A DNA stretch of 64,000 bases, from assembly GCA_020137815.1 (NCBI GenBank), contig CM035357.1, forward strand, positions 3,286,001 through 3,350,000. The letters run 5' to 3'. Shown in pieces: positions 11,701 through 54,208 of this stretch (position 1 is the first letter of the stretch; each line of letters opens with the position of its first letter). This stretch comes from Hormiphora californensis (taxonomy: Eukaryota > Animalia > Ctenophora). Below the pieces are notes generated by a model. That model searched no databases, was not told the DNA's origin, and saw nothing but the letters and a program-made list of their open reading frames with translations. Position numbers and translations under genes: made by a program.

Positions 11701-14700
11701 AATTTTAGTATACACAAGAATGGGTACTCACAATATGAATTAGTTTGGTTTTATCAATATTTTTACTCAACTTAAGTGGATAACAGCAGTTTCCATCATA
11801 AATCGTTACTCAACCGTATGAAAGAGAGTACATTTGGTATTTATTTCGGGTTTATTGGCTAGAGCTAACATTTTTCTTCGAAAATAAGCTTCTACTTTAA
11901 CAAAAGGATAACTCAGCCGGTGTGGATAACCATTTTTGTACCCCTTGGTCAGCATTAGACATTTCGATTCTCATTTATCCACATCGATTGAGTAAGTTAT
12001 ATGACCAGGAAATTACAGGTAGAGACCAACCTCAACCAACAAGGGCAGTTTCCGAGCAAAAATTAACTCAACCGGTGTGGATAACGTCTCTTTGCTGTTA
12101 AGAGGATTTTAGCGGAAAATCGAAGTTATCCACACTTGTTGAGTATCTAATTGGAGCTAATCTAGCTTGTTCATTGATTTGGTATCGATTAGGAATATTT
12201 CACAAGTTGAGTAACCAAAATTGTGGATAATTTACGCATCTTCAAGTTTGGGAGGCTGTGTATCCACAATGGTTGAGTAAAACTTGCTCAACCGTATATG
12301 AGGAGGTTCCCACAACAATTATAATTGCAGTTATCCACAAAATTGAGGAATAGTTACAAAGATTACTCAACCAGGTGGATATTCATAAAACTTGTGTTTT
12401 TATCCACACTGGTTGAGCAATCGATTTAATTATTTAAAATTAGTAGAATTTAAACATATTTTGACCTGCTTACAAAATTTTAAGTGTCTAGAAGGTGTCT
12501 AAGTGGTCTAAAAATTTGTTTCAGTAATTTTGGTCGATTTTTTGAAACCCAAAATATCGAAATTTCAGCAGACTTTTTGACCGTGACCATATAGAACATG
12601 ATTCGAGGAAGCCAATCAAGAGTGTTAGACGATATGGTCACGGTCAAAAAGTCTGCTGAAAATCGATATACTTTTGAATTTACTCAATCGTGGATAAGAT
12701 CCTCTCCATGGACAAATTTTTCGAACTCAACCCACTCAAAATTGTTCAAATTTTATTAATCTGAAAAGTCCAATATAATTGCTTTATCTGTTTCTCTGTA
12801 ATCAGCACTTAAAAAGTGTGGATAACAAATCGTGTGGATAACGGGCTCAACCGCATGATGATCGTGCTAGCAATATGAAATTTTAGTATACACAAGAATG
12901 GGTACTCACAATATGAATTATTTTGGTTTTATCTATTTTTTTACTCAACTTGTGTGGATAACATCAGTTTCCATCATAAATCGTTACTCAACCGTATGAA
13001 AAAGAGTACATTTGGTATTTATTTCGGGTTTATTGGCTAGGGCTAAAATTTTTCTTGGAAAATAAGCTTCCACTTTAACAAAAGGATAACTCAACCGGTG
13101 TGGATAACCATTTTTGTATCCTTTGGTCAGCATTAAACATTTCGATTCTCATTTATCCACATCGATTGAGTAAGTTATATGACCAGGAAATTACATGTAG
13201 AGACTAACCTCAACCAACAAGGACAGTTTCCGAGCAAAAATTAACTCAACCGGTGTGGATAACGTCTCTTTACTGTTTAGAAGATTTTAGCAGAAAATCG
13301 AAGTTATCCACACTTGTTGAGTATCGAATTGGAGCTAATCTAGCTTGTCCATCGATTAGGTATCGATTAGGAATATTTCACAAGTTGAGTAACCAAAATT
13401 GTGGATAATTTACGCATCTTCAAGTTTGGGAGGCTGTGTATCCACAATGGTTGAGTAAAACTTGCTCAACCGTATGTGACGAGGTTCCCACAATAATTAT
13501 AATTGCAGTTATCCACAAAATGGAGTTATAGTTACAAAGATTACTCAACCAGGCGGATATTCTTAAAACTTGTGTTTTTATCCACACTGGTTGAGCAATT
13601 GATTTAATTATTTAAAATTAAAATAATTTAAACATATTTAGACCTGCTTACAAAATTATAAGTTTCTAGAAGGTGTCTAAGTGGTCTAAAAATTGGTTTC
13701 AATAATTTTGGTCGATTTTTCGAAACCCAAAATATCGAAATTTCAGCAGACTTTTTGACCGTGACCATATGAGACACGATTCGGGGAAGGTTTCTATCGC
13801 TTTCCATCTCTATGACCCTATCCACATCTCTGTGTCTCTCTTTCTTTCTCTTTCTTTCTCTATCTCCCTCTTTCTCTCTCACTTTCTCGAAGGGAGAAAG
13901 AGAAACATGGAGAAAGAGAGATACCCATAACTTTTTACCGAATGATATGAGAAAAGTCATGGTTTAGCCATGCGAATTGAATGGATGATATCTTCTTGAC
14001 CTCCCTGACCATTAGTCCTTCAATGCCGCCACCTCCTTCCAATCCGGTTTCTCTAGCTAAACCGACAATCTGCAAGAAACGACCGAGAGGCTAGGTGCCT
14101 ACACCTGGTAGGCGGACTCTAGTGCTAACGGACTCTATATATAAACCCAAGGAGGACTCTATATCTAGCCCTAACCTTTACACTAAACCCTAACCTCGAA
14201 CCCAAATAACAGCCCTAACACTTCTAAACGAGTATAGAGGCACAGCAAACTCTCGTTTCCGGCCTAACGGCCGAAATCTCGAGTTCGCTTTTCGTGATTT
14301 TAGCACTAGAGTCCGCTTACCGCCTACATCTACCTGCTAGGAAAGCGACGAAACGTATTTCCACGGAGCTCAACTGTCTTTTCTCATTCGAAAGAAAGAC
14401 AGACAGACAGACAGACACAGCGATGTGGATAGGGTCATAGGGATGGAAAGCGATAGAAACCTTCCCCGAATCGTGTCTCATATCGTCTAACACTCTTGAT
14501 TGGCTTCCCCGAATCATGTTCCATATCTCGTATCGTCTCCTACTGCTAATAAGCTTCCCCGAATCACATGGTTCATATCCCGTATTGTCTCCCACTGCTA
14601 ATAAGGCGTTCCAGAATCGTATCACATGTCCATCCCCCTCATTAGCATTTGAAATACATATGTATTTGAAATACATATATATATTTCGGTGTCGAGATTC

Positions 14701-26900: not shown

Positions 26901-29900
26901 TTGTTCAACCCGCAATCCTTTGTTAAATCGTTTGCTCAATCGATTTTATCATTGTTGTTCTGCTTTACAATAGAGATTCCCGTACGCCAAAATTTGAGAA
27001 TTTGGGAAAGAGAGAGAGGCCTCCGAGAGAACTTTTGTTATAGGTGATTTGGTGACATAGATACCTGGCGCCGGGGTCTGGTCAAATCGACGTGTTAAGC
27101 TGTGGAACTGCTAACCGTGCCTCTCCCCAGCAATGCCACTTGTCGAGGGTAATGTAATTTTTAGTCGGGGTCTGTACATATTGCCAATATGATATTGGAC
27201 CAGTGCAGTTTGTAGTAACTACACTACTAAATCTACTTCAGGTCGAGGGAAAGTTATTTTCAGAATTCACTCCTTATGTTCTTTTGTCCTTTTTGTCGGC
27301 ATTGTACTCACCCAGAATGTTAACAAGGAAGGATATCAGGTTGCTGGATATCTCCTGGTCCTCTATGGGTAACAAACAGACAACAGGGAGAGAATGGAGA
27401 CTGTATCGGGGCCAACCTGATCTACAATCTCACCAACCAATTCACTACTTAGCAGAGTACTGGCCTTCTCTGGGTTCCTTTTTACTAGTTCACCCAACAA
27501 TCTACATGCCTTATCTCTGATGATTGTTCTATGTTCATTAGGGGTTGCTAAGTTGAACAAGAATTATTGCATTATGTATTCATAATGCTGTGTTTCCCTG
27601 CCCTACCGTTTCACGTATCACTGCCAACAGGATCAATGCAAGACTTGGTCGTAATGTAATGTGAGATGCACTGCCAACAGGATCAATGCAAGGCTTGGTC
27701 GTAATGTAATGTGAGATGTATACGATCTAGCTGTCAGTATACTTCTCACATAGCTTAGCTAACTCACTTGCTAACTAGCTTTTGACATTCCAACTTAACT
27801 ACTTATCTAACCTTTCACATAGGAAGTAATTTTGATATCTCCTTCTGGTGATCAACACACACACACGCCCTCTGTACAACAGTTTTAATGGGGAATCTCA
27901 CACATACACGGGCAGAACTCGGTTAAGGAGAGATTAATTAGTATTCTGAATAAAGAGTTCAGAGCAAGAATTAAATAGGGAAGAAAATCGAAAAATACTG
28001 GGTTTGACCGGGAATTGAACCAGGGACCTCCAGAGAGACATGCTCGGGCTATAAACCACTAAGCTACCAAACCCTAGGGTTTGGTAGCTTAGTGGTTTAT
28101 AGCTCCGAGCATGTCTCTCTGGAGGTCCCTGGTTCAATTCCCGGTCAAACCCAGTATTTTTCGATTTTCTTCCCTATTTAATTCTTGCTCTGAACTCTTT
28201 ATTCAGAATACTTTCACATAGGGATCCCTAAAAAAGTTCAGTATTTACACAGAGTTTACACAGTCTTTACTCAGTCGTTACACCTAGGGTTTGGTAGCTT
28301 AGTGGTTTATAGCTCCGAGCATGTCTCTCTGGAGGTCCCTGGTTCAATTCCCGGTCAAACCCAGTTTTTCGATTTTCTTCCCTATTTAATTCTTGCTCTG
28401 AACTCTTTATTCAGAATACTTTCACATAGGGATCCCTAAAAAAGTTCAGTATTTACACAGAGTTTACACAGTCTTTACTCAGTCGTTACACCCAGAGCGC
28501 CCGCGCCGCTCTGGGTGTAACGACTGCTCTTTCGCACTCGATTTGCAGCGTTTTCGGAAACTTTTTTCGCCGCAGCGCTCAATTTTGTCAATTGTGCAGC
28601 ACACAATCCAATATTTTCTTGGAAAAAGCCACTGTGCGCAGCACGCGCCGCTCTGGGTGTAACGACTGAGTAAAGACTGTGTAAACTCTGTGTAAATACT
28701 GAACTTTTTTAGGGATCCCTATTCGACTCGCAAGATGACCATGTGTATGTAACACGCGAAACGCGCGGCAGCGCTATTTCATGTTTTGTTGAGTGGCGCG
28801 CACACACCACGTCCAAAGAATCGCGCCATTGGAATTTTGATGAAGGAGCACCTTGTTGTTGTGCGCGCGGCTCTAGTTGCTACGCCGTTGCCCTCGCAAC
28901 GAAAGTGTGACCAAAATGGTCCCTCTACCGATTAGTTAGTATACCAAAATGTCGTTTTCGAATTCTAACCCTGCTATGCCTTTTTACAAAGTAAAAAGGC
29001 ATCCGGGTGAATGCCGAAGGCATTCACCCGGGCAGGGAAAAAATATCGCTTTGGAACAATATGTCTGGTATTCAGTGGGTAATTTTCTACTGATTTCCGA
29101 AGTTTCAGCCCAAACGGTTGAGCCGCTTCGAATCGCAAGCGACTTTCATAACCCGCGTTTTTGCGTAAATAATGGAATTTTAGGGTTAATGAAGTCAATG
29201 GAGCACTATTTTTGTATACCTTGCTGTATACTCAAAATATCCCTTGCGAACAATATGTCTGGTATTCAGTGGGTAATTCTACTGATATTCGAATTTTAGC
29301 CCAAACGGTTGAGCCGCTTCGAGTCGCAAGCCACTTTTGTGACCCTTGTTTTCGGTGAAAAATCGGGAAAAAATCGAAAAAAAATTTTAAAATTTCAAAA
29401 CACGGAAATTAGTCCCTAGAACATCCCAATACACGTGCAACACTTTAAAATTGTGTATTCAAAAAATTTCAACTTAGCAACATTGTTCATCGTGTTATGT
29501 TTTAGTTCAGTCGTTAGAAACATTCTCTATCTAGGTTAGTTGAGAGGGTAATTCAAAACGGAAAACGGGTTGGACTTCACCTTGATAAGGAAAAACAAGA
29601 GAGAATTAAAGAAATCAACTCTCGGCTCAGCAACCTTGGTAGGCACTATGTACAGATACACATTCCTGGAGTTGATAGAAATTACTCTTTTTGTAACACA
29701 TAATAGTTTACATGTTACATGGACCAAATTCCTTTTCTAGGAATTAAATCCAGTTCATTATATCAACCTAACTCTCCAAGGAATCCAGTTCCAAATATAA
29801 CTCTATTTCCAGGGATCCAGTTCCAAATATAACTCTATTTCCAGGAATCCAGTTCCAAATATAACTCTATTTCCAGGAATCCAGTTCCAAAATAACATGA

Positions 29901-32900
29901 ATGAGGATAAGACTACACTTTTCTTCACACCTGATCAACTCAAGGGATGTTCCCAAGACTTCCTATCTGGTAAAACAAGTGACTATTATTGATTCTTTGT
30001 TTACACGAGTTGGGTAATCATGATTCTCGAAAATATTGTTCATCAGGCTGTCTCGAGAACAGAATGGGTTTTATTTCTCGTTATTTCCCCCTGTTAACCC
30101 TTATTACCCTGTTAACCATGTTATCTCTGTTACCCCCGTTAACTCTATCCCCCCTCCTACTAGGGATTGAGAAGGATGAGGAAGGTCGCCATAAGATCAC
30201 ACTACAGTATCCCCATCTATATCCCATACTGAGGGAGTGTGTCATTGAGGATACTAGGAAACAGCTGCTTGTGGCACGTTACTCCATGTGCAGGGACCAA
30301 AACACACCCATCCTTGAGGTAGGTAGTGAGGTATAGATTGAGGTGTAGATTGAGGTATAGAGTGAGGTATAGAGTGAGGTAGGGTGTGAGGTGTAGTGGT
30401 ATTATATAGGGACCAAAACACACCCATCCTTGAGGTAGTTACTACGTAACTTTAGACTTGAGGTATTTGGTTAGGTATTGAGTGAGGTATTGGGTGAGGT
30501 ATTGGGAGGTTTGTTTTTTAATCGACCCATGTTTTAGAACAAGCAGCAAACGCTAAAAACTTTCATTTTAGGAACTGGTTAAATTGAGGGCAGAGAAAGC
30601 AAAGCTTCTTGGATTTGAGACTCATTCTGATTTCATATTGGATGCGAGGATGGCCAAAAGCAGGACTACCGTGGCAACTTTTATAGATGACATGGTAAGA
30701 AGATATAATGATGTTAACTTAAGTTATCCTAATTAGGATACATTGAGATTATATATTTTCATTGTAATGCCATAATATAGTTTTCAGTTCAACCACTAAA
30801 ACTAATACAACTCTGGTTTTAGGTCTCTAAGATGAAAGGACCCCTTGCGAAGGAATTCGATGGATTCCTAAAAATGAAGGAGAAAGAATGTGCTGAGAAT
30901 GGGGAGGCATTTTCTGGGACAGTGCAACCTTGGGACATCTACCATTATATGCAGGTTGGGATTAAATTACTCATACAGTAAAGTATGAGATTCTGAATTA
31001 GGTTTAGAGTTGTAGCCAGAGGAGAGAGAATGGGGCGAGAATTTGAGATTATTTGAGATTTTAGTAGGAGATGAGATGAGATTAGAAATGATACTGATGT
31101 GTGATAAATTCCATCTGTGAAGTTTTTACACGGTTTTATAACAGATTCCTCCCCTCAGATTACAGTAAAAGAGCAGTACTCGGTTGACCAGGAGCTTCTC
31201 AAACAATACTTCCCAATTGATACAGTCACAAAGGGCCTTCTGGAGATCTACCAGCGAATATTCAACCTCCGATTTGAAAAGATCTCCGAGCCAGCTGCGT
31301 GGCACGCTGATGCCTCCCTACACAGCGTGTTCGATGCTACTTCCGGCCAGTTCCTCGGTCAATTCTACATGGATTTACACCCTCGGGAAGGGAAATACGG
31401 TCACGCTGCAGTGTTTGGACTCCAGCCAAGTGTTGCTCTCCCAACCGGAGATCGTCAACCCGCTGTCTGTGCTCTGGTTTGCAATTTCACCGCTCCCACT
31501 GCTGATAAACCCGCCTTGTTGACCCATGGAGAGGTGGAAACATACTTCCACGAGTTTGGCCACGCAATGCACCAGATTTGCTCACAAGCCGAACACGCAC
31601 TCTTCGCAGGTGAGGGGCGCGCGTGTACGCGGTATCCCGCGGTGCATATCATGACGAGACTCTCACCAGCGCTGAAGTCAGACTCTCTAACCGTTGGAGA
31701 GAGAAAGAGAGATCTAGATAGATCCTTCCCTAACCACAGCGGAGAGGGAGAGCTGTATGGACACTCTGTCTCTGCTGTGCGCACACTTGTCTCTGCTTGT
31801 TTACCTCATGACGTGGGTTACAGAGAGGGAGAGAACCATTATAGCGGATCAACGCCTCGTGATGCCCTCTCACAGAGAGGAGAGCCGATTATTGCGCACA
31901 CTTGTCTCTAGGGAGAGAGAGAGACGGCTAGGGACCGATTAAGTGTGACGCCCAGCGTCACACTTATTTTGCATTCTCCGGAGACTATATAAGGGCGGGC
32001 TGTTAGCTGCCATTTGTCTTTTGTTAGAGACCCAACCCAGAGGAAACCCAGAGGAAACCCTTCTCAACCCGCCTACCTCAGAGCTATTGCCTAGCCATGC
32101 TCTCCGCTCCTCTTCCTGCCAAAAGCCCGTGTAGATTTACCTATATATACTTAACATAGAGTTAGCTAGATAGGATACCAGTGCTCTTATTACATTGTTA
32201 GTGCCATTATTAGAGTGAATATTAAGGGTATAGAACATATTGTAGTTGCTTATCTATTTATTACCCACAACCCTGTGTTTGATATTCTATCCTCGGGTAG
32301 AGATATACTGAGTACCATAGCGGAGCTATGGAGGGGGGTTATGCGTGACTCAGTAGAGATGGAGCCCCCAGCGAGAATCGAACTCGCGACCCCTGGTTTA
32401 CAAGACCAGTGCTCTAACCTCTGAGCTATGGAGACTGGAAATCGGATATACCCACTTGGGAATGGGGAGAGGAAAGAAGAGTAGAAGCTATACTACAAAA
32501 ACTCCAGTTCGAAGACAACCCTCTACTAACGCCGGAGCAGAAAGCTCAAGTTCGGGAATTGTGAAGGAATACCAAGAAATCTTCAGTCTTTCAGATAAGG
32601 AACTGGGTCTAACTACCCTGTATCACACTGAGATAAAACTTAAAGAAAATGCCACTGTTGTTAACAAAAATAGACCCATACCCATGCACAGCTTCGAAAC
32701 GGCTAAAGAGATGATTCTAGACATGATTGAAATGGGAGTGTTAGAACCGAGCACAGCTACTTATCGGTCCCCCTTAGTGATAGTCAAGAAGAAATGGAAA
32801 GAATAAGATGTGTATCGATTTCAGGCTACTCAATGACGCTACGGTGTCTAATTTGCACCCACTCCCAACGGTCCAAGAAACTAGGAATATTTGGTTCGGA

Positions 32901-35900
32901 TGCAAAATGTGGAGCGTCATGGATCTTAGCTCCGCATTCTGGCAAATACCACTACAGAAGACTCTAGGACGTCACGACTATATGGCTGAATTCGATGGGA
33001 TCCTGGAGGCACAAGGTGGTGCCCATGGGGCGAGAACAAGCCCAGCAGCCCTGCAGTCTTTAGCTGATAGGCTTTTCGGGGACCTGAGGCGAATGTTTGC
33101 GCGGTTTACTTGGATGATATAATATCAGGGCAGCCAATGCTGAGGTCATGATGGATAATCTGAACTAATATCGAGAGACTAAAATTGGTGGGCTCAAACT
33201 GAAACCCGGAAATGCGAGCTATTTCAACGGGAAGTCATGTTCTTGGGATGCAAACTAACAGAAGAAGGGCTGTACGCAAACCAAGAGAAAATAAAGGATC
33301 TTTTGGAGATGCCAGACCCGAAATCAAAGAAGGATGTCCAAAGAGTGTTGGGATTAGCTGGGTATTTTAGGGAGTTCGTACCTAAATTCGCAGAAAAAGC
33401 TAAAGCCCTAACCTCGCTACTCCAAGGATCGGAAAAGTTTGAATTTGGGGAGGAAGCTAAAAACAGCTTCGAGGCCGTGAAAACCGCCCTGACGAACCCG
33501 CCCTTGCTTGGTTTGGGCGGATCCTAACAAGACGCTCAATATTTTACGGACGCATCAGGATACTGTATGGGGTTCTGTTTGATGCAGGAATCAGACGATG
33601 GAAAAATGCATCCCATCCATTATGGATCTAAAGTATTCAACCCCTCACAATTACACTGGCCATCTTTCGTGAAAGAATTCTACGCTGCATACTGGGCGAT
33701 AACCCGATGAGATTCTATCTATTGGGAGAAGGTTTGTTCTGCAGACCGATTGCAAAGCCATGAGTTTCGGGACTTTCCTAAGAAATCAACGGCCAATGCT
33801 ATAATCCGATGGAGTATGGAATTTGTCGGAGTACGAGTTTATATCAAGTTCGTACCAGGGAAGAGAACGTGGTCTCTGATTTTCTGACAGACCAGCTTGC
33901 CTCAGTCTTCATCAGGCTATACGATTACATCAAGCAAGGAATCCAGGATGCAGTAGCGGGTAAAGAAAAGAAGATAAGTCTAAAGTTGTGAATCAAGTGA
34001 GTGAGGAAACAAAACCAACCCAAGTAATAGGAGACGAGGAATTCTTGAGAGAGTCTAAGGAAGACCCTACTTTTAAAAGTGTACGCAAGTGGATCAGAGA
34101 AGAGGAAAAAGCAGGAGATCCCAACATGCTACCCCCTCAGAACGACAATACTATAACAAGCTGAGTCGGCTGAAGATAGGGGATCAAGATATCATTGCAT
34201 CAGATAGGGTAACCCGGGACTCACAGAGTTCCGCTGGTTACTTGCGTACCAGAGTCACAAATAGTCAAAGTCATAGAGGCAAGCCACACAGTGGCTGGAG
34301 CACCCCAGTCGTCCGAGAAGACCGAAAGTAGAATAAGACAGAATTCTATTTTCCTAATATCAAGAAAAAGTACGATTGTTCTGCAAGACCTGCAGCGATT
34401 GCTTCAAGACTAACCAGTATCTACCGGAACAAACCCATACCGGAGTTGAAACCATACACATAAATACCCAGGCATGTGGTGTTAACATGGACGTGGTACA
34501 GATATCGAAAGGGGGAAGATTTCCCAAGGTGCTTACTATGGTTGACAAATTCACGAAATATGTAGTGTTCGTGCCCATCGCTAATGAGAAGGCTACCACC
34601 ATAGCGAAAGCCTTCTTGGATAACTACGTTTGCATCTGGGGACCGCCCCAGATCTTAGTAACTGATAATGCTGCGACTTTCAAAACGGCGGAGGTCATGA
34701 ATAACCTATATGTCTCTAGGATAGAGAAGAAGTACTGTGCACCGTACCATCCCCAAGGGAATGGAATAGCAGAGCGGTTCAATAAGGTGCTACTACATCT
34801 GTTACAGAAACTAGTGGGGGATAATCCCGGACAATGGAGGCAAGCACACCGCGACTACAATTAGCAGTAAACTCAGCGATAAACGGTCCACAGGGTATTC
34901 CTTTCCGGTTAATGACCGGAAGAGAGATGACTGATTGGATGATGTCATATTCCAGACCAGATCAACAAAGTTCTTTGAGAGTGAGCATCATCTGGCAAGT
35001 GACATGTACCAAGAACTTAGAAAGATATTCCGATTGGCGGGTAACAACCTAGAATTGACACACCGTCTTCAAAAAAGGATATACGACCGGAATAAACAAG
35101 CCGTGAGCCTAGCAGTGGGAGACAAAGTGATGATCTACAGGCCGAAAGACACATCTAATAATTACTACAAGTTAGTAACTAACTTTAAGGGTCCATACAT
35201 TATAATTGATGCTTGGGATCAGCACGATTTTCTGGTGCAAAGAATACGGATGGAAAGAAAAACGGGGGACTGTAAATACGTTGTTCATCGAAACCACTTA
35301 AGGAAGATCCCCGAGGAATGAGAGGACATCTAGGAGAACAAGAGCAGGAAACCGCAGAAGCAAGCATAACTGAGGAGGAAGAAACAGAACCTGAGGACGA
35401 CAGCGAGATAGAGGAAATGCTGCTGCGAGACGACGACGACGACGGTTGGATCGGAGGATATACGGAAATTACGGGGACAGGAGATCGAAGGGTAACAAGA
35501 GCTCAAGCGAAGGCAAATCAGGCTGTAACAGGAATGGGGCCTCAAAACATTACGAGAGACTCTGGAATATCAATGGGGGAAATAAGGACACCTCCGAATG
35601 ATAGGGAAAGAGACCACCCAAGAGACAATACAAGGGTCCCCCCACGAAACCATACAAAGTCCCCCCAAGAGAACACACCAGACTACCCAAGATACCACCC
35701 AAGATTCCACGGGAGAGAGCTGGGGAAAACACCCCAGTAGCGGATAACAATAGGACAGCCCGGGTGAAGGGTCAACGCAAATTTCAACCCCATGGCGAAC
35801 TCGAATACTGGAAGAGTTAACCCGGGCATTTGAGAAGAGTTGGGAGAAGAAGAAGAAGGAGGGGAAAATCTAAGAGAACAAACTGACCCACTCAGAGGAG

Positions 35901-38246
35901 AACTAGATCCCCGCTTAGAACAGAGAGAACGGATAGCGGAGTCTGTAGCAGAGCGGGTAATAGAGCCAAGGGAAAGGGTAGTCAGATACACCGAAGCACC
36001 GCGTGAGGTGGCTGGACAGTACCAACTACTAGGAGGACCAAGTCCAGGAAGAAGGAGAAGTCAACTAGGGAGCCCAAGTAGACAGCAGGACCTACAGACG
36101 GACCTGACGGATCGTGATCTATATACAACTGCAGCAAAAACCTTGGCATTAGGTACTTCCATAGGAAATGAGGATGTACATAGGGTATCAGACTCACAAC
36201 CAGATAGACTAGAACCACATAACAGAACACCGGAGGGAGAGCATCTCAAAAACAGACAAGGAACGCCAAGGAGAACAACCCCGGGGGATAGCCATAGACA
36301 GCAAATTCCTGACCAACGGGTGGAGAGACCGGGACCCTCCAATAGAACCCCTAACGCCTCGCCACCAGGAAAAAACGTGGTCAGAGGAGAAAGGGGAGGA
36401 ACCCAAGAAAGCTCTATTTGGACATCCCCCAGATAGCTCCTGGGAGAAGGACTAACAAATATTCCGAGGAAGATGTACAGAGAGAGGAAGAATTGTTAAG
36501 AATGGGGTTGGGTATACCAACAACCATATTTCCAGACGTACCTCCAGCTAGACAAATATGGAGGGATAAAATGAATGAAATGAGAGGGGGACGCCGAATT
36601 CTGATGGATGATCCCACCAACCATTCTACACCTGGAAAGATACCGAAAGGAAAGGAGAAAAGAAGCCACTCAGGAGGTACCACCCTCTCCCCAGGAGGGT
36701 ACAAATACAAGGGACTGAAACTCCGCTGAAAATCAAACCAGCAAGACCCCGGACAGAGCGTCCAATGGAGAATAGTCCAATGATTTCACGGGGTGAGGGC
36801 CACAGACGACCGTCATATGAAGAAGAAATAGATATGGAATTGGAACAACCAGGCCATCAGGCTAGAGAAGAACAAATGGACTGGCAGAGTCGAAACCTTA
36901 ACAAGACCGAGTACAGAGAGCGGACAGACCAAGGGCTAGATAGCACCATGGACACTACCAAGAGCAAGACAAGCAACGACTCGTTTGGAGAATACGAAAG
37001 AGCTCGAACCCCAACAAAGGGAACGAGGGTAGTCATGCAACCGCCTAAATTTGAAGCGCGACCACAGCCAAGAGAAGAGGAGCCTGATTGGCAACAAATA
37101 CAGGCGATAGCCCAAAGACTGAATACCATAGATAGAGAGAACGTGCTAAGAAGGAGCGACCATGCAGAGGACGAGGAAATGGAGGAAGTTTTAGAGACAG
37201 AGAATAGACAAGAAAGAGACTTCGTGACAGGGACGGATGAAACAAGACTACCTAGCCCCCCACCTAGGCGGTCTAAAAGATTGGAGAATAAGGCCAATAA
37301 ACTATAAGTATCGGCGTGAGCCTACTAATTGCCGCTGAAATATTGCTTACTATGATAAATATTATTTACCTAGAACTAATACAATATAATATAAAAATAA
37401 TGCTGAGAGTGCGTGTAAACTGTAGGAGAAATGTGTTAATTGTAATTCATTATAACTATAATTTTAATCGAAAAAGCCTTGCTGTTTGACTGGGATAGAG
37501 GGAATTACTAAGACGGAACATATAATACAGACAATGATATGGGGAGCATGAAGGGCAAATATAACAACGTGTTAACTAAGGCTGACATATGGTTCACATG
37601 CGGGAGAGTGGAGTTATAAGGACTTGGGGCCTGAATGAATGGTCGTGGGGACATATGATCTTCTCATGGTAAAACACAAAGCGGCCCTGCCATGGGGGAT
37701 ATATGACAGAGCAGCAGAATAAGGTTGGGTGTTGAATACACACACAGTGAAACAAACGCATAGAGTTAACCAAAACAAATCAAACAAAAGAATTTTTTAA
37801 ATATAGTTTCTAGAGTTTCTGCAGTAGCACAGGGTTGGGGTGAAACATTGGGGGGCGGGTAGGGGCAGGTCGGTCCCTCCTCCCGCAACAGTAGCCGCCC
37901 ACAAGGCCTGCCACGAACACCCCAGCCAACATCAGGGGAACCACATACCAGGGGATCCAATGGGGCCGGTAATGGGGAACCGGAGGAGCCGTGGTAGGAG
38001 AAATCCTGAGAACGGTCATATAAGGAGGAATAACTGGAAAGAGGGGAAACTAATGGAAACTAACACTAAAGATAACAATAACTTACGGGCTATTACACCC
38101 AGAGGTGTAACAAAGGGAGCATCCGGGGTCCTCGGGCGAACAAAACCCACACCCTGAGAGAGCCCCCACAAAACACTGCATGCTGAGGGAAGAAAAATAA
38201 CAGAGATGAGATAACAGCAACCAGGAGAAAGATAATGAAGAGAAAT

Positions 38247-38603: not shown

Positions 38604-41600
38604 ATGACTTACCGAATGATGTTCAAATACTCAAATCTCTCACCTCCCAATCTCTCACTTCGATAAAGTCCCTACTTGCTAATTAACACCCCTTCCCAAG
38701 AAACCACCTTACCAGACCTCATTGTTCTGAACCTCAAAACTGACTCGGATTATTTGCTTAGGTTTTAGAATCAGGAAGATATGGCACAGGCAGAATGAAA
38801 TTCACCAGGAAAAAATACCCGGAGATAACAGCTATGATTGAAGAGGCCCCACCACAACCGGAGGACATATTACAAGATGAACCGCCTCGAAGGGACCTGA
38901 ATGAGGTGGAAGCACTGAAAGAAGTACAGGAAGAACAACAGAAGAGGATACAGATAAAACATAACAGAAGGAGGAGAAAGGAAGATGACAGAATGATATG
39001 GAAATTACTGCGAGCCAACCCCAGTTTTACGATAAAATTAACAAGTAACTTGTCGGCAGCCAATAGATCTAAGGAATACCATGCAATCAAAGTAAAATTG
39101 ACTAAAAGATACAGAAAATTATTCAAAAAATGCCGCCAATTAAATAGTAAAGTAAATGGAAACACAGAAGAAATATTTGCTGCGATGATAGAGGGAGAAG
39201 AAATACCTGGAAGAATTGAGCTGTGTGAGAAATGAAACTATGTAAGAAGGGTAGATTGATATAAATAATGCCATTTCATAATTGTGCCTATGGCTGTTGT
39301 TTTATTAGATCCCTGAAACCCCATACAAACTCTTTCTAATAAACCACATACAAATTACTGAGTTACCCTATAGAACTTTCTGTAGCCGACAACGGCTACA
39401 GAAAGAGTTGCGGCAACAGGAGCAACAGCAGCAACAACCCCCACTAGGGGACATTCCGCCCCTAGGAGAGAACTATATAGAATGAGAGACAGAGTGAGAG
39501 AGATAAAGAACTATTAGAGAGAGGGAGAAAAATTATAAATAAGGGAGAGAGAAAGAACTATTAGAGAGAGGGAGAAAAATTATAAATAAGGGAGAGAGAA
39601 AGAACTATTAGAGAGAGAGACTATTAGAGAGAGAAAAAAAAAAAAAAAAAATGTATAGAGAGAAAGAGCTATATAGAGGGAGAGGGAGGCAGACAGTTAG
39701 CGTTCAGGCAGACAGTTACACCTCTTATACGAAGTTTTGTTGTTGTTGTATATATACATAATAAAATGGCAGGAGTTTTGCACGAATACAGGGTGCGCCG
39801 AGTGCCCAAGACGAAGATACAGTTGGGAAACAACGCCCCGATCACGATAGAGGAATTATCCGGAAAAGTGGACGAAGGGATCAACTCCTGGGAAGAAAGC
39901 GACTCCTGGAAAATATACCCGGACTTCACGGAAATAACTGACATTGACGGCGCCCGAAGCGCGTGGTACGAGTTCCTCTGGTTTTCCGGGTTTTTCACAG
40001 TGAGGCATTCCTTTTGCAGAATGATCAAAGGATCAGGAGATGTGATGATAAACCCGGAGTTGAAGACCTTTCCCCCTTTCACTCGCCCCCTTAGGGCTGA
40101 AGGATCAATCACAGGTTACAGATTCGATCTGGACACCCTGTTTACCCCGCCTGAGGGGGACGAAGAACCAGAGAAGTGCCACAATCTGCATGGACTCATC
40201 ATCCCATCAAGAAAATTGATGGGGATGTTCTTCGCCTGCGCCGCGGAATTTGTCCCTCTTAACCCAATGTTCATTGAAATGCAGCAGGACAATGAATATG
40301 AGCGAGGCTGCTAATACGGGGTGGAGGGCATGGAGGAGGGGGTGCAGGCGAGGGGGGTCCTGGGCAGTGGGCAATGGAGTGGAGTATACGGGTGAACAAC
40401 AATCTGTAATTACGACGAGCGGAGTACCAGGTAAACATCTAATAATAGTCGTCTGACATTTCGTGCTTCCTGCCCGCTATATTATGCAACGCTGATTGGC
40501 CACTTGTGTGGGTAAGCAATAACCCAGTGCTTTTTGTTGCTTGCTCATATATTGCGAGACCAACTTAGATATCAAAGTGTTGGGGAGATCACGTCCAGTA
40601 GATGTTTGAGTAGACATAGTGTCTGACGCTATAAGTGGACATGGGTCTGGTGAGAATAAAACAAGATCAACAAAGGAGAAAGGGTATAGTAGTACAGCCC
40701 AAACTAATCTGGTTTTGGAATGGACACAAGCCTGTAAAGGCACGCCGTGTTGTATTCACACTAAGGAGCGCGTGGATATAGGGTCGAGCCGGACAATTAT
40801 AACCCAGATATCAACAGGATGGCAACGATGGGTGTTTTATTGAATTACTAATTTGCGACGCGGTTACCCTTACATAAGTTGTCGCACGCGACATTTCAAA
40901 ACTATATGTGAGGGAGGTGATGTAATCACCGATATTACTATTTCCAATCACTGTCTTGGTCTTCAAATTCGACTACTCCTAACATCCAACATTCTACACA
41001 GGTCCCGACAGAACGACCAGACTAATTATCGATTCTAATAAACCTCTTATCATAGCAATGACATCCTACCTCGAACACAAAATGGGAACGGATTTGATAA
41101 AAGAGGAGAAGGTACAACAATATCGGATAAAGCAGGCGATGGGAGATCTGGAAGAGCTGCTGAGAGAAGGGAAATGGAGACACAGATTCTTTGGCTCCAC
41201 CCAGAACAGGACAGTGGTGAGAGGGAGCGACATAGATGTGCTAATATGGGCGGAGCAGAGCGCAACCGAGACGATGAGGAATCTGGACAGGAACAAAGGA
41301 AAAGCATTTAAATTCGTGAAAAAGGTGAACAAACTGGGAGTCTTGACACTCAGGCACGAGGCAGGAATCAAGATAGACTTTTGCTGTGCTACGGAGGACG
41401 ATAGGAAGGAAAGAGTTCTGTGGAACTCAAACCTTATTAAATGGTACACAGAGGAGAAATTGTTCCAGATAACAGTTAAATCAATAAAAACTCTGTTCGA
41501 AGGGACACCGGTGTTGCAGGCTTCCTTGGGAGGAGTATCCAACTACGCAATAACACTAGTCACGCGGGCTGTCTTAGAAGAAAATAGAATCGTTAAAGAG

Positions 41601-44600
41601 GCCCACCTAGAGGAAAGACGAAAAAGAAACAGTGAGCGACAGAATCTGGGGGAAACATCAGCCATAATGACGATGTTAAGATTTATGGGGGACAGCACGG
41701 AGGGAATGGATAATTGTACGATAGACTTGAGAAAAAACTTGGGAGAGAAAATAGAAAGAGGATCTCCCCAGATTAGAGATCCTTTTGAGGTAAAAGATTT
41801 ATACAGAACTCAAACGGATGGTGTAAGAGAGATCAGATGGAACATAGTCTCTTATTACGTACAACAACTACCAGTCAGGAGGTGGAGAGACGTCAAGAAG
41901 GATGTAGTAAACGCGTCAAAAGCTTGGTATGAGCTACCAAGAAAAACTAGAACAAGGGCATATTTTGATGTAGAAGAATTGAACGATAGAATATGAGCAA
42001 TTGAACAAGTGGTATTTCACATTAAATTACCCATGCTAATGTAAATAGGATTATATTGCTACGAAATTGAGATCCAACTGTTAGCGAAGGTGCGAAATTG
42101 TTCTTACACAATGGTATATTATTGAATTGCATTTACATTTATCGAAACGGGTTAACCACTGCACTCAACCCTATGTGTTTTTCTGTAACCTTATTACTCT
42201 TGTTATCGCTGCATCCTTGTCAACGATGGCCCTCTCGTATCATTGATTAAACATTATCTATTTCCAAAATCAGATGGATTTGGTGTCCTAAAATTCAACA
42301 CCGCCTAACATCCAACCTTCTAAATAGGTCCCAACAGGAAGGAAATGAACGGAAGGGAAGACGGAGTTGATCCGGAGTTTGTCAACGAAATATTACAGAT
42401 ATTACAGATATTAGCTTCGCTACCAATCCCGGATGTTTGTACTACTAGTAGTGCTAGTGAACGTGCTGTTGGCAAAGGCGAGGAAGGCAGACATCTAGAA
42501 GAGGAAAAAGTAGAGAAAGAACCAGAGAGATCCTGGGACGGAACAGTTCCTACTGATGAGGCCGAGGGTATTAACGAGAGGAAAGAAGAGCGTGATAAGG
42601 AGTGGAAGTGGAAGGAGGACCAAAGAAAAGAGAGAAAGCAAGATAGCGAGACAATGGAAGAACATAAAGCCCAATATGAAGAGACTATTGAGAAAGAGAG
42701 AGAGGAAAGAAACCGAAAAGTGAAAGAGAGAAAAAGAGAGAGAGATAGGATATACCAAGCCAATAAACGGGCAGAAAGAAGAGAGTATAGAAACCGATAC
42801 GGTATAGACATGATTAAGAGGAAGAAGGAGGGGCCGAAAACTAGGAATGCGGTGTACTCGAGAAGATACAGAGAAAAGAAAAAAGAGAGGCAAGAGATCA
42901 TGAAATATTTAGGGAAGGAGAGGGAGTGATGTTCTCACGTGAACATGTCGATGATAATTAATGTCCGAGATATCTTGAACCTCACACTTCCTGGTACTGG
43001 GTTCACTATCGCTATCCATAAAATGCAACGAGACTGTTGAGTGGTTAGGGCTGTAGAGGCCCGGTACTGCTGTTTCCTTCCGCACAAGACAGACTTTGAG
43101 GGACAACGCGGCCCTTATGGTAAACAGGTGAACTCCATCCTTACGTTCGCCATCTCTCTCTTCACCTTCTCGGAAACCTTCGACGTAGCGCCACCGAGAT
43201 TCTAAACACAAGAGTTGTTATTCGGACTTTGAAATTATGCGGAAGGAGGTCTTCCTGGACCAGGGCTTTTAAGAATTCAATGTGGCCCTGTAGTAATGAG
43301 TGGATGCTGATTTAGGGGTAATGAGGTATTGGTAAATACCCGAACTAAGCTATCTTGTTGAATTTAATGAGAGTATTTTGTATGTATATTGAATTTTCGT
43401 ACACTGTAAAGATACTATACGTTCCTCATACCAATGTGTTATTTGAAATAATTATCGAGAGTGATCATAACTCTTTATGCCTGAAGTAATCCATTACGAT
43501 CTAGATACTGCTGATTCCCAACCTATAACTCTACCCACACACTAGCTAGAGGGCATATAATGAATTGCACGAATGAAGTAGGGGAATGTGAGTTCCCTTG
43601 GGAAGTGATAAAGATAACAGGGATACTGTTGAGTGGTATATACCTGGCCTGCGTTTTATGTTATTGTCTACGAACCTGCACACACTAAGGACACGAGAGA
43701 TAAAGAGACTTTAGAAGATGTGGAAAAATACTGTTTAACGAGATTATGTGACCTAGATAGATGAAATTGTAAATAATATTGACAATAATTACAAATTAGT
43801 ACAACAATAAACGTCAAAGATTGTTATTGATTTCTAGATAATTAGAGAAGGAAACTAATATGTGTCTTTTCAATATAGCGAATGGAAGAAATAGAGAATA
43901 TGTATGGGCAGGCAACTCCGATAACCGATGTAACAAATCCATTCGTATGTGACCCTTACAATGTGGAAAGAATTGAACCTATGTCACCCAATTACGTGAT
44001 CGCGGGAACAGATAGACCAGTTTTACCCTGTATCCTTAGGAAAGATATGGAGGAGGAGACATCGAAAGCATTGAGCCGATTGACAGTGTCCTCCGTTCAC
44101 TCATCATGCAACTCCCACGATTCACTACAGGGGCCACAACCCTCTACGGAGTATATTGAAGCAGAGGAACCCATGGAGGAGGGGGTTGCGGGAGAGCAAA
44201 CTTTGCATAGCCCAGAGGTGGGAGAAGTGGCAACCTTATCCCTTTCAACTACTCCTTATATGGATATTAGCGCGGAGGTACTCCCTTGCACAGAGGAGGA
44301 TGGTGTAGAAAAGGGATACGAAATGGAAGATCTCCTTAAAGAGTTAACAGGGGAGATATTGGACTTGCAATGTCCACCTCTCCAGGGGACACCAGTAACC
44401 TTCAGTCCAACAGCCTCACCCAAACAACAAGAAGCAGGACCGGAAGTAAGTGAGGATTATCCGGACTGGTTGGTACAGCTCCTGGAAGCAAAGATTGAAC
44501 CAGAGGAAGGCTATTCGTCATCAAGAGATATGGAGTGGGATGGCACAGACGAACGGGGGAATGGTGATAATACATGTTGCCAGGGGACGTCGATGGAGAT

Positions 44601-47600
44601 GGACGAACCCAGAACAGAGAATTCGGTTCTGGTATTAGGGAAATGTCGGGAGGAAGCGAGGATGCTGGATTTAGACAAGTCGGCTGTGGGAAAAGTCTCA
44701 ACACGGGAGAGATGTTGGAACAAAACAGTATACGAGAGCAAAGTCTACAGCGAGCTCCAGGCCCACACCACGACAAATTCACAACCAACCTCACCGGAGT
44801 ACAAGAAGGGGGAAGATGGTCCAGAACGAGTACACAGGAGAAGCAACAGAGAGGGAGCAGAGATGGACAGACCACACTTGACATCGAAGGAATGGGTAGA
44901 TTGGATACTGTCACGAGAGGGGGAGGAAGAAGTCTACACATGGATAGACAACATTAGCGAAACAAGAATGGACAGATTCGCTAAGGAGATGGAGAGCATC
45001 ACCCTTGAGGAAGCAACAGAGGATGGAAGAAAAATGAAGAAAGAAAAACTAAACGTAGAGATCACAGGAATAAAGCAAGGTGCAAGGGTACCAGTGAAAG
45101 ATGTCGCGATGGAGAATAGCGACGATGAAACCCAACCGGGAATCAACACAGAGACGGAAATAATAGTGAACGTGGAAGGTAGAGCGGTTATATCGGTATC
45201 AGCCGAAATACTAAGAACATTGCAAGGATTTGAACAAAGCAATAAGCAGCAACGCCGAAAGAAACGCAATATTGCAGCTCAGAGGGAGAAAGGGCGATTA
45301 AGGACCATAAAATACAGAGTTCGGAGAAGGTGGAAAAAAGAAATTGGACTTTCAATGATGACTATGCTGCAATCCACACTAACGAACAATTGAGGAGAGA
45401 CAAAGAATTATAAATATACTATACAGTGAGGGTTTGTTGATATTATCAAATGGATTTTAATGAGTGAGTCGCCATGGTGACCATAGCGACCGTGTTATTG
45501 ACAGTGAAAGAACCACACGAGAGAACCGGTGAGGTATCAAGAGGCACATATATTGAAAGATTAAAATGTAAAGTAAAATATTGGAAGATTGAAATGAGTT
45601 GGGAGTTGTTTTACTGTTCAAAATATGAGAACATACACACACGCTGATCATACTAACACGAACCTATCCCTATAGGCATGACAGCTAGTATGATATTGAT
45701 CGTTGGGATGGCAACAACGATAATGGCAAAGGAGATGGTGAGTCCAAGGATATGCCAAGATAAAAGAGGAGGCGCCATCTACAGATTACCACCTCTGCTC
45801 AACTGCGATGAGGAGAAGTTTGACAGTTGGGAGATTAGACTATGGAAGAAAAATATAAAGGAGTATACTGGAAACATAAAGGGGGTGAAAATCATCCGCA
45901 GGACGTGCACCACCAAAGTGGGGTTCCTAGGCGACAAGGAGGTATTGAAGAAGAAGACATATGAAATACTCCCACAGGATACAGTGGACACCCTCTTTAG
46001 ACAAGGAAGCTGCGTTAACCCTAACGGATACGCTACATTGAGTTCGGGCGGAAAGGACTTTAAATGCCCAGGGGAATGGATGAAGACAAAGACAGCGGTA
46101 GTGATGGAGTGCTTACACTACGAAGGGTCTATAGTGAAACGTCATGGACAACCCGGGCGAACAGACCTTACAAGTTTCCATGGTTGCGCTTACGAAACGG
46201 GTAGGTGTAGGGCAAAAGATGGAATGTACCTAAGATGGACTCCAGAGGAGATTGAGAAGGAGGAGTACACCCTGCAGGGACGTTATTCGGCAGTAAAAAC
46301 CGGAGACCACATACTTATACCGAAATTAGCAATGGTACTAACCGTCTCAGAGGGTGAGGGCCCTTGGGAATCTGGTGTGTTCCGGATTGAGAGGATAAAA
46401 GAGGAAGGACCCGACAACGCAACGGTAAAAATGGCCGGGAATCCAGACGGAATAGAGGCATTGAGAGAAGAAATGAATGCAAGACTGGAATACCTGGCGG
46501 AAACAATGAAGTCACCGAGAGCAAAACTAGAATATTTGTGTGACATATGGAATCAGGTGAGGAAGAACGAGAGAGTTGTAGCGTCTCGAAGCCCTACGAA
46601 ATACGCCCAATTAAAGCTGGGGTATGATGAAATGATAGCGAAAACCACGGGGGAATACCTCATGGTTTACCCGTGCCAAAGAGTGAATGAATGGAAATGG
46701 GGGAACAAAACAAATCGATGTTGGGAAGAGGTACCTATACAGTATAAGCTATCAAAAGATACCAAATGGACAGAAGGATATCTGGATCCAAAAACAAACA
46801 TCATCACCAGAAGAGGAACAGAGTCACAGTGCCGAGGAAGAGGCATAGTGACTGAAATAGGAGATAAACTGGAAAGTCATACACAACATGGCGTACAAGA
46901 TATAAACACAACAAATGTGGTAACGCTGGACGACGCGATAAGTGGAATTCCAATGATCGATTTCCTAGACGCAGAATGGGCTTACGACGAGAGTGAGTTA
47001 ACTAATACAGAGTTGGATAGAATAACGGACAAAACAGATATCTCAAAACCAGGGGATGAGGAGCCTGAAATAAACAGGAATCCCCATGGAATGTGGAAAT
47101 TAGTGGGACTGAAAACACTATCCTGGGACGCGGTGCTAAACTGGGTGTGGCTATGGTTCACAAGAATAGTGTGCCTGATCTACACAACCCAGACAATCGG
47201 AAAATGGATGTGGAAGATAGGAGAAAACAAGTTGAGAGAGATTAAATGGAAAAAGCAACAACGAAAACGAAACGTTTGGTTCTCAAGACGACAACCACGG
47301 AGGAGAAGTGATATATCACGAGAACGAAGTGAAGACTCGGAGGATGAAGACGAGAGCTCAGAAGGAGAGGTCGTATGGGGACCTTAGTGAACTACGGATA
47401 GATAATGAATCCTAATAGTACATACAGAAACGAACTTTAATTTGTGAATATAGTGAAGCTAAATGAGTGAAATATTGAAGAATATGATTGTACAATGACA
47501 AATGCAAGTAAATGAATGTGAATAATCAGTTTGATCAGGGGACCCCGGCCGGACTTAACAACACCCTTGACCACACGTATTTCCATTCAAGGCCTATTAA

Positions 47601-50600
47601 GTCTCGAGTCAGTTCAAACCGCGAGAGTATACACTGTATGACTTTTCAGTATGTAGGGCAAACCCCCTAGATAAATAACTGACTCGAGGAGAAGCGTTGC
47701 GCAACGTAGGAACGCGGTAGCATACACTCAGAAAACCCTATCCCCTCCGAGTACTTCACTTACAAATACTAATCAACATCTCTTCATATATAGCAATGTA
47801 TTGGACAGTGATACTAATACTACTGGCATGGATAAACAAATCCAGGGCTGGTACGAACGACTATATGATGGATGAAATAATCATAGGAGAAGACACAGGA
47901 GTTTCCATGGAGGCAGTAGGATTCTTACTAGGACGAGATGGAAACCACTACCGGTCTATTTTCCTGAAATTACAAGACCCGACAGACAAGATGGACCTAT
48001 GCAATCAACTCTGTCCAGGGAGCGTGAACAAGGCGGTAACGCAATGGACAAGAGCCAGACAGATGACATGCAAGGTTGGACAGAAAAAGGGGAAGACATT
48101 CGCCCCAGAACTACGACGAATTCGACACGATGGAGGAATCCCGGCGAACGTATGTGTCAAGACATGTTTACTAGACCCATTCTGCTTCCAAGTTGGAGTA
48201 ACGGCTACTGAATGTGTACTGCGACCACGGGAGCTGACGGACGACGAGATGGAAGGGGCGACTACGGACTATGGAGAGTATGGGATGAAGTGTTTCGCCG
48301 AAGCCAATACGAAACAGGCGATGTGTGAAGCAGCAGCGAAAACAGCGGAGGAAACCCTTCTACTGGAACTAGATAGAGAGAACCGGAAATTTGTACAGAA
48401 AACATGGGATAACTTGAACGCACTCATACCGACAGAAAAGGGAATAAAGAAAAGGGGTGTGAAAGATTGGTTACTAGGCGGAGGAACTGGCCTAAGCCTA
48501 TTAACTGCTGGATATGACTTATGGGCCACAGTGAAACTGAAAAAACATGTGAATGAGATACAGCAGGAATTCGAAGCGTTCAAGAAAAACCAAACTAGAT
48601 TCGACAAGGAGCAGATCAAGTTCAATGGGAAAATTTTGGAAGTGAGTCAACATTTGGAACAGCGTATAGAAAGACAAGAATGCCGAAGCGACCAGGCGGT
48701 GTGGCATCTACTAAACCAACGGAGGCTTTCGGAATGGAAAGACTATATGCAACAACTGTATCGGGGAGTCCTAGCGGGGAGTCAGGTTGGGGAGATATCA
48801 CCCATTATATTTCCAAAGAAATACATGGAGAAACTGGTGAGAGATGACACCAGTCTGGCCAAAACAGCGTACAAAGAAAATATAGCACTAGCATACCGAC
48901 TTGGACTGCTGGCGGTAGTTAGCCACGGCCAGGGAGAAGGACAATTCGCTATTCACGTGGTGCTAAGTTTCCCAGACCTGGGAACACAAGGGGTCAAAGA
49001 AGTATACAGGGTACTGCAAACGGGGGTAGCTTTTAACGGCAGTCAATGTGGAAGGTTCGAACTACCATCTGTCGTGTATAAGGAAGAAAACAAATTTTAT
49101 GAAATGGAACAAGCAATTTGCGAAACAAAGGCCAACCTGCACCTATGCTGGGGAGGATCAGGAGCAGGTAGGAGAGAAGTGTCTTGCCTGTCAAACAAAG
49201 AGGAATGCAAAATTGGATTAGAGAAATGCAGTACTCAAGTTAGAGAGAACAGGGCAGGATTACAGGTACGAACCACAGAACAAGTTAGAGCAGCAATGTT
49301 AAAAACACCAGATGTGTGGAAAAGAGTGGACATGGGAAAGACAAGGACAAAATTCTTCAATAGATCACAATACGCAGGAGTGATGGTGGGAGAATACGAG
49401 AGAAGCATGGCACCGGAGAAACATGAAATCAGGGTCACAACATTACCAAACCCGGACCAGTGGAGGGAAATAATAAGTCAACGATGGGAGACTCACCAGA
49501 GAGAGAATATTAGTGATCTAGCAACGATAGTACACGAGCAGAAACAGATAGTAAAAGGGATAGTGGAATCCGGAAAGATAAGCGGTGGAATGAAACTAAC
49601 GGATTATTTGGCGATTGCAGCAATGGTGATGGCCACGTTAGGGACAGTAGGGCTAGTGACCTACCTGGTGGCCAAGCACAAGATGGCTAGACTCAGTGAC
49701 GACGAACAACGAGTGAGATATAAAGTTAAAAGAAAGAGAAAATGGGACGAGAATGAAATTGAAGAAGAGGTGAAAAGGGAATCAAAGAGGAGGAGCATAA
49801 CGTTAGACGATGAATCAGAAGGAGACGAGAACAAAGAGACGACACAATTTCTGGAGGACACAGAGGACAGCGAACCAGAGGCAGCATACCGAACAGCCCA
49901 ATTAGATTTGGATCAGACCCTGGAACAAATTCCACTACAAATACAACCAATCGCACAAAGTACACCTAGACGAGTGACACAAATTCGAGGACACCAATAC
50001 CAACCGACAACGATGACACAAGCACTAGCGATAGTACATCGAAAGAATACGACGAGGTGAAGTGATAAGACGAAAAGACGAAAAAGAGATAGTGAGACTA
50101 TGAACTACTATTTTAAACGTTTTAGAAGACAATATGTGAAATATAGAAGTTAAAATGAATATGAAAAGCTATAGACTGTGCTAAAAATATTAGAAATAAT
50201 AAAAAGAGATAAGTAAAAAGTGAAATTAGTAATATTGGAAGGAGCGGTGGAGCGGGCTTGGTTTGGCTTTCGTGAGGAGGGGGGTGTACGCGGATAAACC
50301 GCGGCAGAAACGGAGTAGTTAGACTAGACTACTCGACCTTTTTTCAAAGACTCAAACGCAGACGGCCATCTCCAGAATTACGGGGTGGGAGTGAACCAGA
50401 CTACTCGACCTTCGACCTTTTTTCAAAGACTCAAACGCGGACGGCTATCTCCAGAATTACGGGGTGGGAGTGTACGCGGTATCCCGCGGTGCATATCATG
50501 ACGAGACTCTCACCAGCGCTGAAGTCAGACTCTCTAACCGTTGGAGAGAGAAAGAGAGATCTAGATAGATCCTTCCCTAACCACAGCGGAGAGGGAGAGC

Positions 50601-53763: not shown

Positions 53764-54208
53764 CCATGCCTGATAGTACCCAGAGGAGGGAGATGGCTGA
53801 AAGAGGGAGACTGAGAGTGGTTTTCCATCTGAAATCTTACTCTTGAATGGGTCTGAATGTTTACAATCCCACATTGCTTTTACGCTGCTTTATGCTGTAC
53901 TTCGTGTCATGTTGATATTTAGAAAATCAGGGTGTTGATTGATTGTGATGTTGATATTTTGTTGAGTAATATTTGATGTTTATATTAGGAACTGTCAGTT
54001 GTGTACATTTGGGCAATATGTGGGTCATGCAAACAGCTGGCCAGTGAATGGAGGTAGAGACGAAGGGTTTCTCTCGCCTTTTTAGTCTGAATTTTGGTTG
54101 AAATCTACAGTCCCTCCAAATACCCCGATAACAAAACTCCTTCCTTTCAGCGTGTTATTTCCAATTCTGATTATTGCTCTCACACCCCCATTTCCCTTGT
54201 TCTAGGAC

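Follow-up and report, generated by a model that had tools for sequence, protein, structure and literature searches.

During reverse transcription, plus-strand synthesis copies the attached tRNA primer and normally halts at m1A58 (PMC13191261, PMC8599865), and run-off to the tRNA's 5′ end is described as a known product when the primer is unmodified (PMC13191261). According to Hardy et al. (2025; PMC12657518), transfer in HIV-1 can be deferred, in which case reverse transcriptase (RT) continues over tRNA(Lys-3) and then switches to a downstream position. Their account covers 44 defective proviruses (one of their own and 43 from GenBank) with inserts reaching 7–54 nt beyond the primer-binding site (PBS) at a deletion junction, and it attributes these products to read-through of m1A58.

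Two other described groups resemble the present locus in part. The ctenophore errantiviruses of Chary and Hayashi (2026; PMC13524379) likewise have a Ty3/gypsy pol followed by a fusogen. Nine ctenophore elements are each typed there as F or gB, none with a Thr site as the account presents them, and the survey left out LTR pairs separated by more than 14 kb. The Helenus/TRIMp3 elements (Kojima, 2024; PMC10886601), of which a Helenus family is reported from Mnemiopsis, are likewise LTR elements that contain a tRNA-derived stretch bearing Pol III boxes. As described, Helenus has its tRNA within both LTRs, is non-coding and under about 1.3 kb, and its tRNA is not complementary to its own PBS.

Here we consider a 64,000-nt stretch of Hormiphora californensis contig CM035357.1 (the window, to which all coordinates refer), which contains a 19.6-kb LTR-flanked Ty3/gypsy retroelement with an entire tRNA complement in place of an ordinary PBS. 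Like the HIV-1 products, this copy has intact LTRs and a tRNA complement that continues past the PBS and marks the join left by a large 5′ internal deletion, and the same read-through is proposed for it. It differs in that the host element is an invertebrate Ty3/gypsy, that the product is apparently heritable, and that the complement extends 52–58 nt past the PBS, rather than 7–54 nt, to reach the tRNA's 5′ end with A and B boxes intact. The ctenophore errantiviruses differ from this element, which at 19.6 kb exceeds the spacing limit of that survey and carries two candidate fusogens and a nucleotidyltransferase; its class III ORF resembles, by eye, the gB-type ENV of Pbac_errantivirus_5. Identity with Helenus/TRIMp3 was rejected because the tRNA lies outside the LTR, occurs once, is the primer site itself and belongs to a coding element. 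We consider it highly probable that the tRNA–pol join is a genomic fossil left by deferred second-strand transfer, with RT reading through the whole primer. The mechanism is already known from HIV-1.

Layout of the element and its insertion site

The domain order RVT_1 then rve (RT, RNase H and integrase), between LTRs accompanied by a PBS and a polypurine tract (PPT), assigns the element to Ty3/gypsy (Metaviridae), and the fusogen ORF downstream of pol makes it an errantivirus in the operational sense of an env-bearing Ty3/gypsy. Its features are as follows.

31620..31623, no strand: 5′ target-site duplication (CGCG), present as one copy in empty-allele contigs of runs X1 and X6
31624..32357, + strand: 5′ LTR, TG...GA ends, 734 nt, from comparison of the LTR pair
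31986: TATA box in the 5′ LTR, upstream of all three R-U5 boxes
32075..32087, + strand: R-U5 box predicted to pair with tRNA positions 7–19 (12 of 13)
32177..32187, + strand: R-U5 box predicted to pair with tRNA positions 21–31 (11 of 11)
32323..32333, + strand: U5 box predicted to pair with tRNA positions 3–13 (11 of 11)
32358..32359, + strand: 2-nt spacer separating the LTR from the primer site, also in contigs of X1, X5 and X6
32360..32435, − strand: whole mature tRNA-Thr(TGT) with CCA (ARAGORN, Rfam)
32360–32377: ordinary 18-nt PBS, part of the tRNA complement
32378–32435: over-extension beyond the PBS, the rest of the tRNA complement
32430..32435, + strand: junction microhomology, tRNA positions 1–6 coinciding with the Pol codons that match P0001 G104-D105
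32430..37307, + strand: 5′-truncated pol (linker, RT, RNase H, integrase and a long C-terminal tail)
40983..41996, + strand: Pol-beta-superfamily nucleotidyltransferase, TENT/TUTase-like
45657..47387, + strand: class III (gB/rhabdovirus G-like) fusion glycoprotein (PF24664)
47721..50060, + strand: second glycoprotein, probably F-type class I (Atlas lead, motif pattern)
50461..50470, + strand: PPT
50471..51216, + strand: 3′ LTR with the same three tRNA-complementary boxes
51217..51220, no strand: 3′ target-site duplication (CGCG), in contigs

The 4-bp CGCG duplication borders both LTRs, and the insertion interrupts an intron of a gene for a thimet oligopeptidase-like M3 peptidase (Peptidase_M3, E 1.4e-51). 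The flanks (31610–31623 and 51217–51290) put it 10–14 nt past the 5′ splice site of a short intron, and splicing of the insertion-bearing allele may be disturbed.

Short-read contigs from four runs (X1, X3, X5 and X6, representing two samples) were compared with 49300–51900; runs X7–X11, which have small shares, were left out. In X1 and X6, contigs run from the 5′ flank straight into the 3′ flank across one CGCG copy, and this empty allele indicates that the insertion is young and heterozygous. Contig depth, which is not copy number, was 27.5 in the element interior and 55.5 in the flank for X3 (about half), and 21.3 and 32.4 for X1, values that fit one heterozygous insertion. Intact LTRs, target duplication and empty allele together indicate normal integration. 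The second sample contains a sibling internal region with few differences. The contigs contain the LTR–primer site junction, comprising the spacer and 8 nt, and those of X1, X5 and X6 that run past the LTR end carry the same spacer and site start, ending after 10–18 letters among the contigs listed. An X6 contig, from the second individual, mismatches the primer tRNA at site nt 9 and may represent a sister subfamily. Loose ends after the LTR in X3 and X5 are mixtures of two and three contigs, and in X3 the contig that crosses the 3′ junction extends 30 letters into the LTR, one below the bridging rule.

The first 1000 codons of pol contain 31 frame breaks (27 short and 4 long) and two stops. 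Differences between the LTRs are indels or small clusters, those of indel type being unsupported by short-read contigs, and an X1 contig matches the 3′ LTR exactly over 50878–51132 at about twice single-copy depth. Flanking host exons in the assembly also lack single bases that are present in the contigs. Most of the frame breaks are probably consensus or assembly errors, and the insertion young.

Several features of the LTR and PPT regions stand apart. Both LTRs finish in GA (32357 and 51216) rather than the canonical CA, as does the sister LTR in the contigs. Sixty-four nucleotides around the PPT recur upstream at 50333–50396 with 95% identity, and contigs of all four runs contain a further tandem PPT variant of this region (50333–50475). 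In contigs of X3 and X5 the initial 61 nt of the LTR are fused to the terminal 19 nt (3′ LTR 50531 to 51198), possibly a miniature LTR derivative. Two metagenome matches and one viral match to the LTR-end motif were set aside as chance, having no further LTR similarity.

Pol is colinear with P0001, a protein of Pleurobrachia bachei, at 87.5% identity over 963 aligned codons, and Pol relatives have the order PR-RT-RH-IN; viral and metagenome contigs yielded no relatives of P0001. The nucleotidyltransferase is 98% identical to another P. bachei protein. Both identities point to a host in Pleurobrachia or a closely allied ctenophore. It gives weak Pfam matches itself; its relatives (12 matches, three from P. 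bachei) match MTPAP-like domains. The enzyme might add tails to RNA of the element or to small RNAs. The class III fusogen matches PF24664 above the cut-off (E 6e-12) and scores 0.96 in Atlas. For the second glycoprotein no match was obtained in Pfam or PDB, and its Atlas score of 0.83 to Baculo_F/Fusion_gly clusters is a lead only. It has a signal peptide, a basic cleavage site (conserved in five of five aligned sequences), a Gly-rich hydrophobic segment, a heptad region and a transmembrane segment, and is probably an F-type class I fusogen. A single Ty3/gypsy element therefore holds two different candidate fusogens in tandem (45657–50060). Four further open frames in the element are without a Pfam match (38762–39235, 39628–40314, 42324–42929 and 43879–45393), and a 53-nt segment is repeated with 81% identity ahead of two accessory ORFs (40959 and 42285), possibly as a subgenomic promoter or splice signal. 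Elsewhere in the window, 162-nt inverted repeats (99%) lie 4.4 kb apart at 9955–14682 and are likely to mark a DNA transposon.

The tRNA complement, its junction and the R-U5 boxes

An initial annotation of this DNA had described an antisense tRNA-Thr(TGT) of 76 nt, CCA included, starting 2 nt past the 5′ LTR. Two programs agree with this description: ARAGORN calls tRNA-Thr(TGT) on the minus strand at 32360–32435, and Rfam RF00005 matches the same tRNA with 66.8 bits (E 9.5e-13, model positions 1–71 of 71). The 76 nt fold into a cloverleaf of −27.0 kcal/mol with a U73 discriminator and CCA at the end, an A box is present and the B box (pattern GWTCRANNC) is at position 53 of the tRNA, so that the cloverleaf and both boxes are intact, as had been stated. 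The complement runs in register past the 18-nt PBS, and A58, C32 and A37 are copied without visible misincorporation. Acceptor position 2 forms a U-G wobble. Given their overlap with Pol codons, tRNA positions 1–6 may derive partly from pol; the acceptor-stem base proposed earlier as a diagnostic SNP falls inside this microhomology and is consequently unsafe for that purpose.

The cloverleaf and boxes are those of a Pol III tRNA gene, but the CCA is encoded and there is no nearby oligo-T terminator. The nearest T4 run is 235 nt downstream of the tRNA, within the LTR, and for these two reasons the sequence does not qualify as a conventional tRNA gene. Pol III might nevertheless use it as a promoter for transcription into antisense U5. 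Three tRNA-Thr calls at 27999–28363 were tried as donor and rejected (32–34 bits, anticodon arm unformed, sequence unrelated). The surrounding segment (27940–28722) consists of three degenerate tRNA-like heads (32–34 bits) in a head-to-head palindrome and a tandem unit of 210 nt, with T runs after them; it probably represents a SINE of tRNA origin or a foldback repeat and has no relation to the primer tRNA.

At its other end the complement meets pol directly. In the assembly sequence, 32430–32435 reads Gly-Asp, corresponding to P0001 G104-D105, and continues in frame into the pre-RT linker. All five protease-bearing relatives have 279–314 residues, protease included, before this point. Neither the N-terminal parts of P0002–P0006 nor P0001 residues 1–102 have a match in the element upstream of 32436, and leader, gag and protease are unmatched within the element, which bears out the earlier observation that gag and protease are missing. 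A protease-like match in ORF 54206–56716 (E 0.034) was discarded as a low-complexity ORF outside the element. The copy thus lacks the leader, gag, protease and about 280 Pol codons; without the gag and protease of an autonomous Ty3/gypsy, it is a defective, non-autonomous derivative. By its sequence, the tRNA insert marks the junction of this 5′ internal deletion, the tRNA's 5′ end being the upstream breakpoint with a 6-nt overlap. The junction hexamer recurs at two other sites in 2865 nt of pol, and because 6-nt matches are common there, the microhomology by itself is weak evidence. The strong point is the position of the breakpoint, since read-through must stop at the tRNA 5′ end or earlier. 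We estimate the chance of an independent deletion landing in this 7-nt window at under about 1%, assuming at least 0.9 kb of possible breakpoints.

Complementarity to the same tRNA extends into the LTRs. Three boxes, present in both LTRs, tile tRNA positions 3–31, comprising the acceptor 5′ strand, the D arm and the anticodon stem. The summed score of the top three (32) was not reached in any of 1000 LTR shuffles, 1000 tRNA shuffles or 166 real windows, the statistic having been picked after the matches had been seen; the best score in the wrong orientation was 7. This complementarity beyond chance outside the PBS is what characterizes an extended primer–template interaction. The U5 box at 32323..32333 is mostly masked in a predicted 7-bp hairpin, of which it forms the 3′ arm; the 5′ arm is apparently kept in the diverged sister LTR in the contigs. 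A minimum-energy co-fold contained the 18-bp PBS helix only, with the U5 box pairings absent, and the pairings would therefore need a chaperone. The boxes likely represent an extended primer interaction, and as sequence features they support tRNA-Thr(TGT) as the primer of the family. In the bipartite PBS of Ty1/Ty3, RNA beyond the PBS similarly complements other arms of the primer (PMC5371799); the primer activation signal of HIV-1 is described as masked in a helix (PMC3185550), as is one box here; and Drosophila gypsy, with two PBSs, is likewise described as having extended primer pairing (PMC1635307). Compared with these systems, the present element has three boxes, all within R-U5, and the pairing is predicted.

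Origin of the tRNA complement

In the sequence of events that we favour, tRNA-Thr(TGT) would be the family primer, aided by the pairing of the three R-U5 boxes with its 5′ half. The primer used here would have been under-modified, as suggested by the copying of A58, C32 and A37 without visible error, and we speculate that opening of the primer by box pairing could have eased read-through. RT would then have passed m1A58 and copied the primer to or near the tRNA 5′ end. The over-extended 3′ end, presumably unable to pair beyond the primer site, would have annealed in the Pol linker, and the over-long plus strand would have been transferred into pol via short microhomology. Normal ends on both LTRs may have allowed integrase to accept the product. 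The accident probably occurred at the present insertion or in a parent copy later moved by a helper. Ancestrally there would have been an ordinary PBS followed by a leader; gag-bearing siblings were not among the sequences read.

Several observations argue for these events, and with them for one of the two options offered by the initial annotation, read-through of the primer followed by a jump into pol. The plus strand carries the tRNA complement, as plus-strand copying of a primer gives; from the standard pathway, a minus-strand switch onto a tRNA would be expected to yield the opposite orientation. The CCA points to a mature tRNA as template. The deletion breakpoint coincides with the tRNA 5′ end, a 6-nt microhomology is present, and HIV-1 offers a precedent (PMC12657518). 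The insertion also looks young and single, from the empty allele in X1 and X6 and the roughly halved interior depth in X3. Against read-through, some misincorporation might be expected at modified positions and none is seen, and the tRNA–pol junction, known from the assembly alone, adjoins an error-rich stretch. Full over-extension is also said to block HIV-1 integration (PMC8599865), and in yeast Ty1/Ty3 primer sequence is described as normally not inherited, a tRNA-copying plus strand being a dead end (PMC5371799). We found no germline case and no invertebrate Ty3/gypsy case of this error in a literature search that did not extend to subscription journals, Repbase reports or the supplements of PMC12657518.

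A more ambitious version of the read-through origin, which we regard as doubtful in its two forms taken together, is that the product is a live new unit. In one form it would be a 76-nt primer site indifferent to over-extension, carried by the whole family or by a helper-mobilised sublineage. In the other it would be a Pol III promoter reading into antisense U5-R, a tRNA-head-plus-strong-stop structure that would act as a built-in antisense silencer of the family. Such a structure was reportedly once proposed, in the Okada model, as the birth of tRNA-derived SINEs.

Somewhat less probable still is that the leader of the family carries a full tRNA-Thr complement and that gag and protease were lost in a separate deletion. 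The complement could in that case be an antisense Pol III gene for the primer or an antisense regulator of the LTR (together the other option of the initial annotation, which the evidence does not support), or else a 76-nt primer over-extension sequence. The intact cloverleaf, A box and B box would suit such a trait, as would the family-level complementarity of the LTRs to the tRNA. Short primer over-extension sequences are described in lentiviruses (PMC13191261), and the listed contigs, which end 10–18 nt past the LTR, display no ordinary leader. Yet the position of the breakpoint on the tRNA 5′ end would have to be chance, the CCA is encoded and the first T4 run is 235 nt away inside the LTR. 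The mismatch at site nt 9 in the X6 contig would mispair the acceptor stem, although this contig may come from a sister subfamily. In addition, the literature yielded no family of LTR retrotransposons whose primer site comprises a whole tRNA, subscription journals and Repbase reports being outside the search.

We think it very unlikely that a host tRNA locus was brought between LTR and pol by misassembly or a chimeric read. Errors are indeed frequent in the 5′ part of the element (the 27 short and 4 long pol frame breaks and the unsupported LTR indels), and it is the assembly alone that documents the tRNA–pol junction. A host tRNA gene, however, would bring its own flanks and no CCA, and two joins would be required within 76 nt, one of them in exact primer register. 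Short-read contigs contain the junction of LTR, spacer and site as well as the target duplication and the empty allele, and the 135 nt ahead of the tRNA are the same in both LTRs. The tRNA-like calls at 28.0–28.4 kb have no 10-nt word in common with the primer tRNA. Finally, recombination of a separately reverse-transcribed tRNA cDNA into the integrated element, via the 18-nt site and the pol microhomology, is barely credible: tRNA cDNA insertions by proviral deletions are described in HIV-1 and MLV (PMC12220202), but the tRNAs in those reports are not the primers and lie at other positions, whereas here both the primer site and the U5 boxes match the tRNA, which stands in exact register. An allele of this locus with intact gag, which would favour such recombination, was not seen.

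Implications for ctenophore elements

Deferred second-strand transfer, so understood, extends a replication error of the HIV-1 reservoir to an invertebrate Ty3/gypsy element, and its product is able to integrate and to be maintained as a polymorphism. Since primer sequence is normally not inherited in yeast Ty3, the fossil hints that ctenophore elements use a retrovirus-like transfer of the strand that copies the tRNA. It also offers a route for welding a Pol III promoter to LTR sequence. Annotators of tRNAs will count such fossils as genes. The R-U5 boxes, together with the 19.6-kb element that bears two different candidate fusogens and a nucleotidyltransferase, may merit more attention than the fossil itself.
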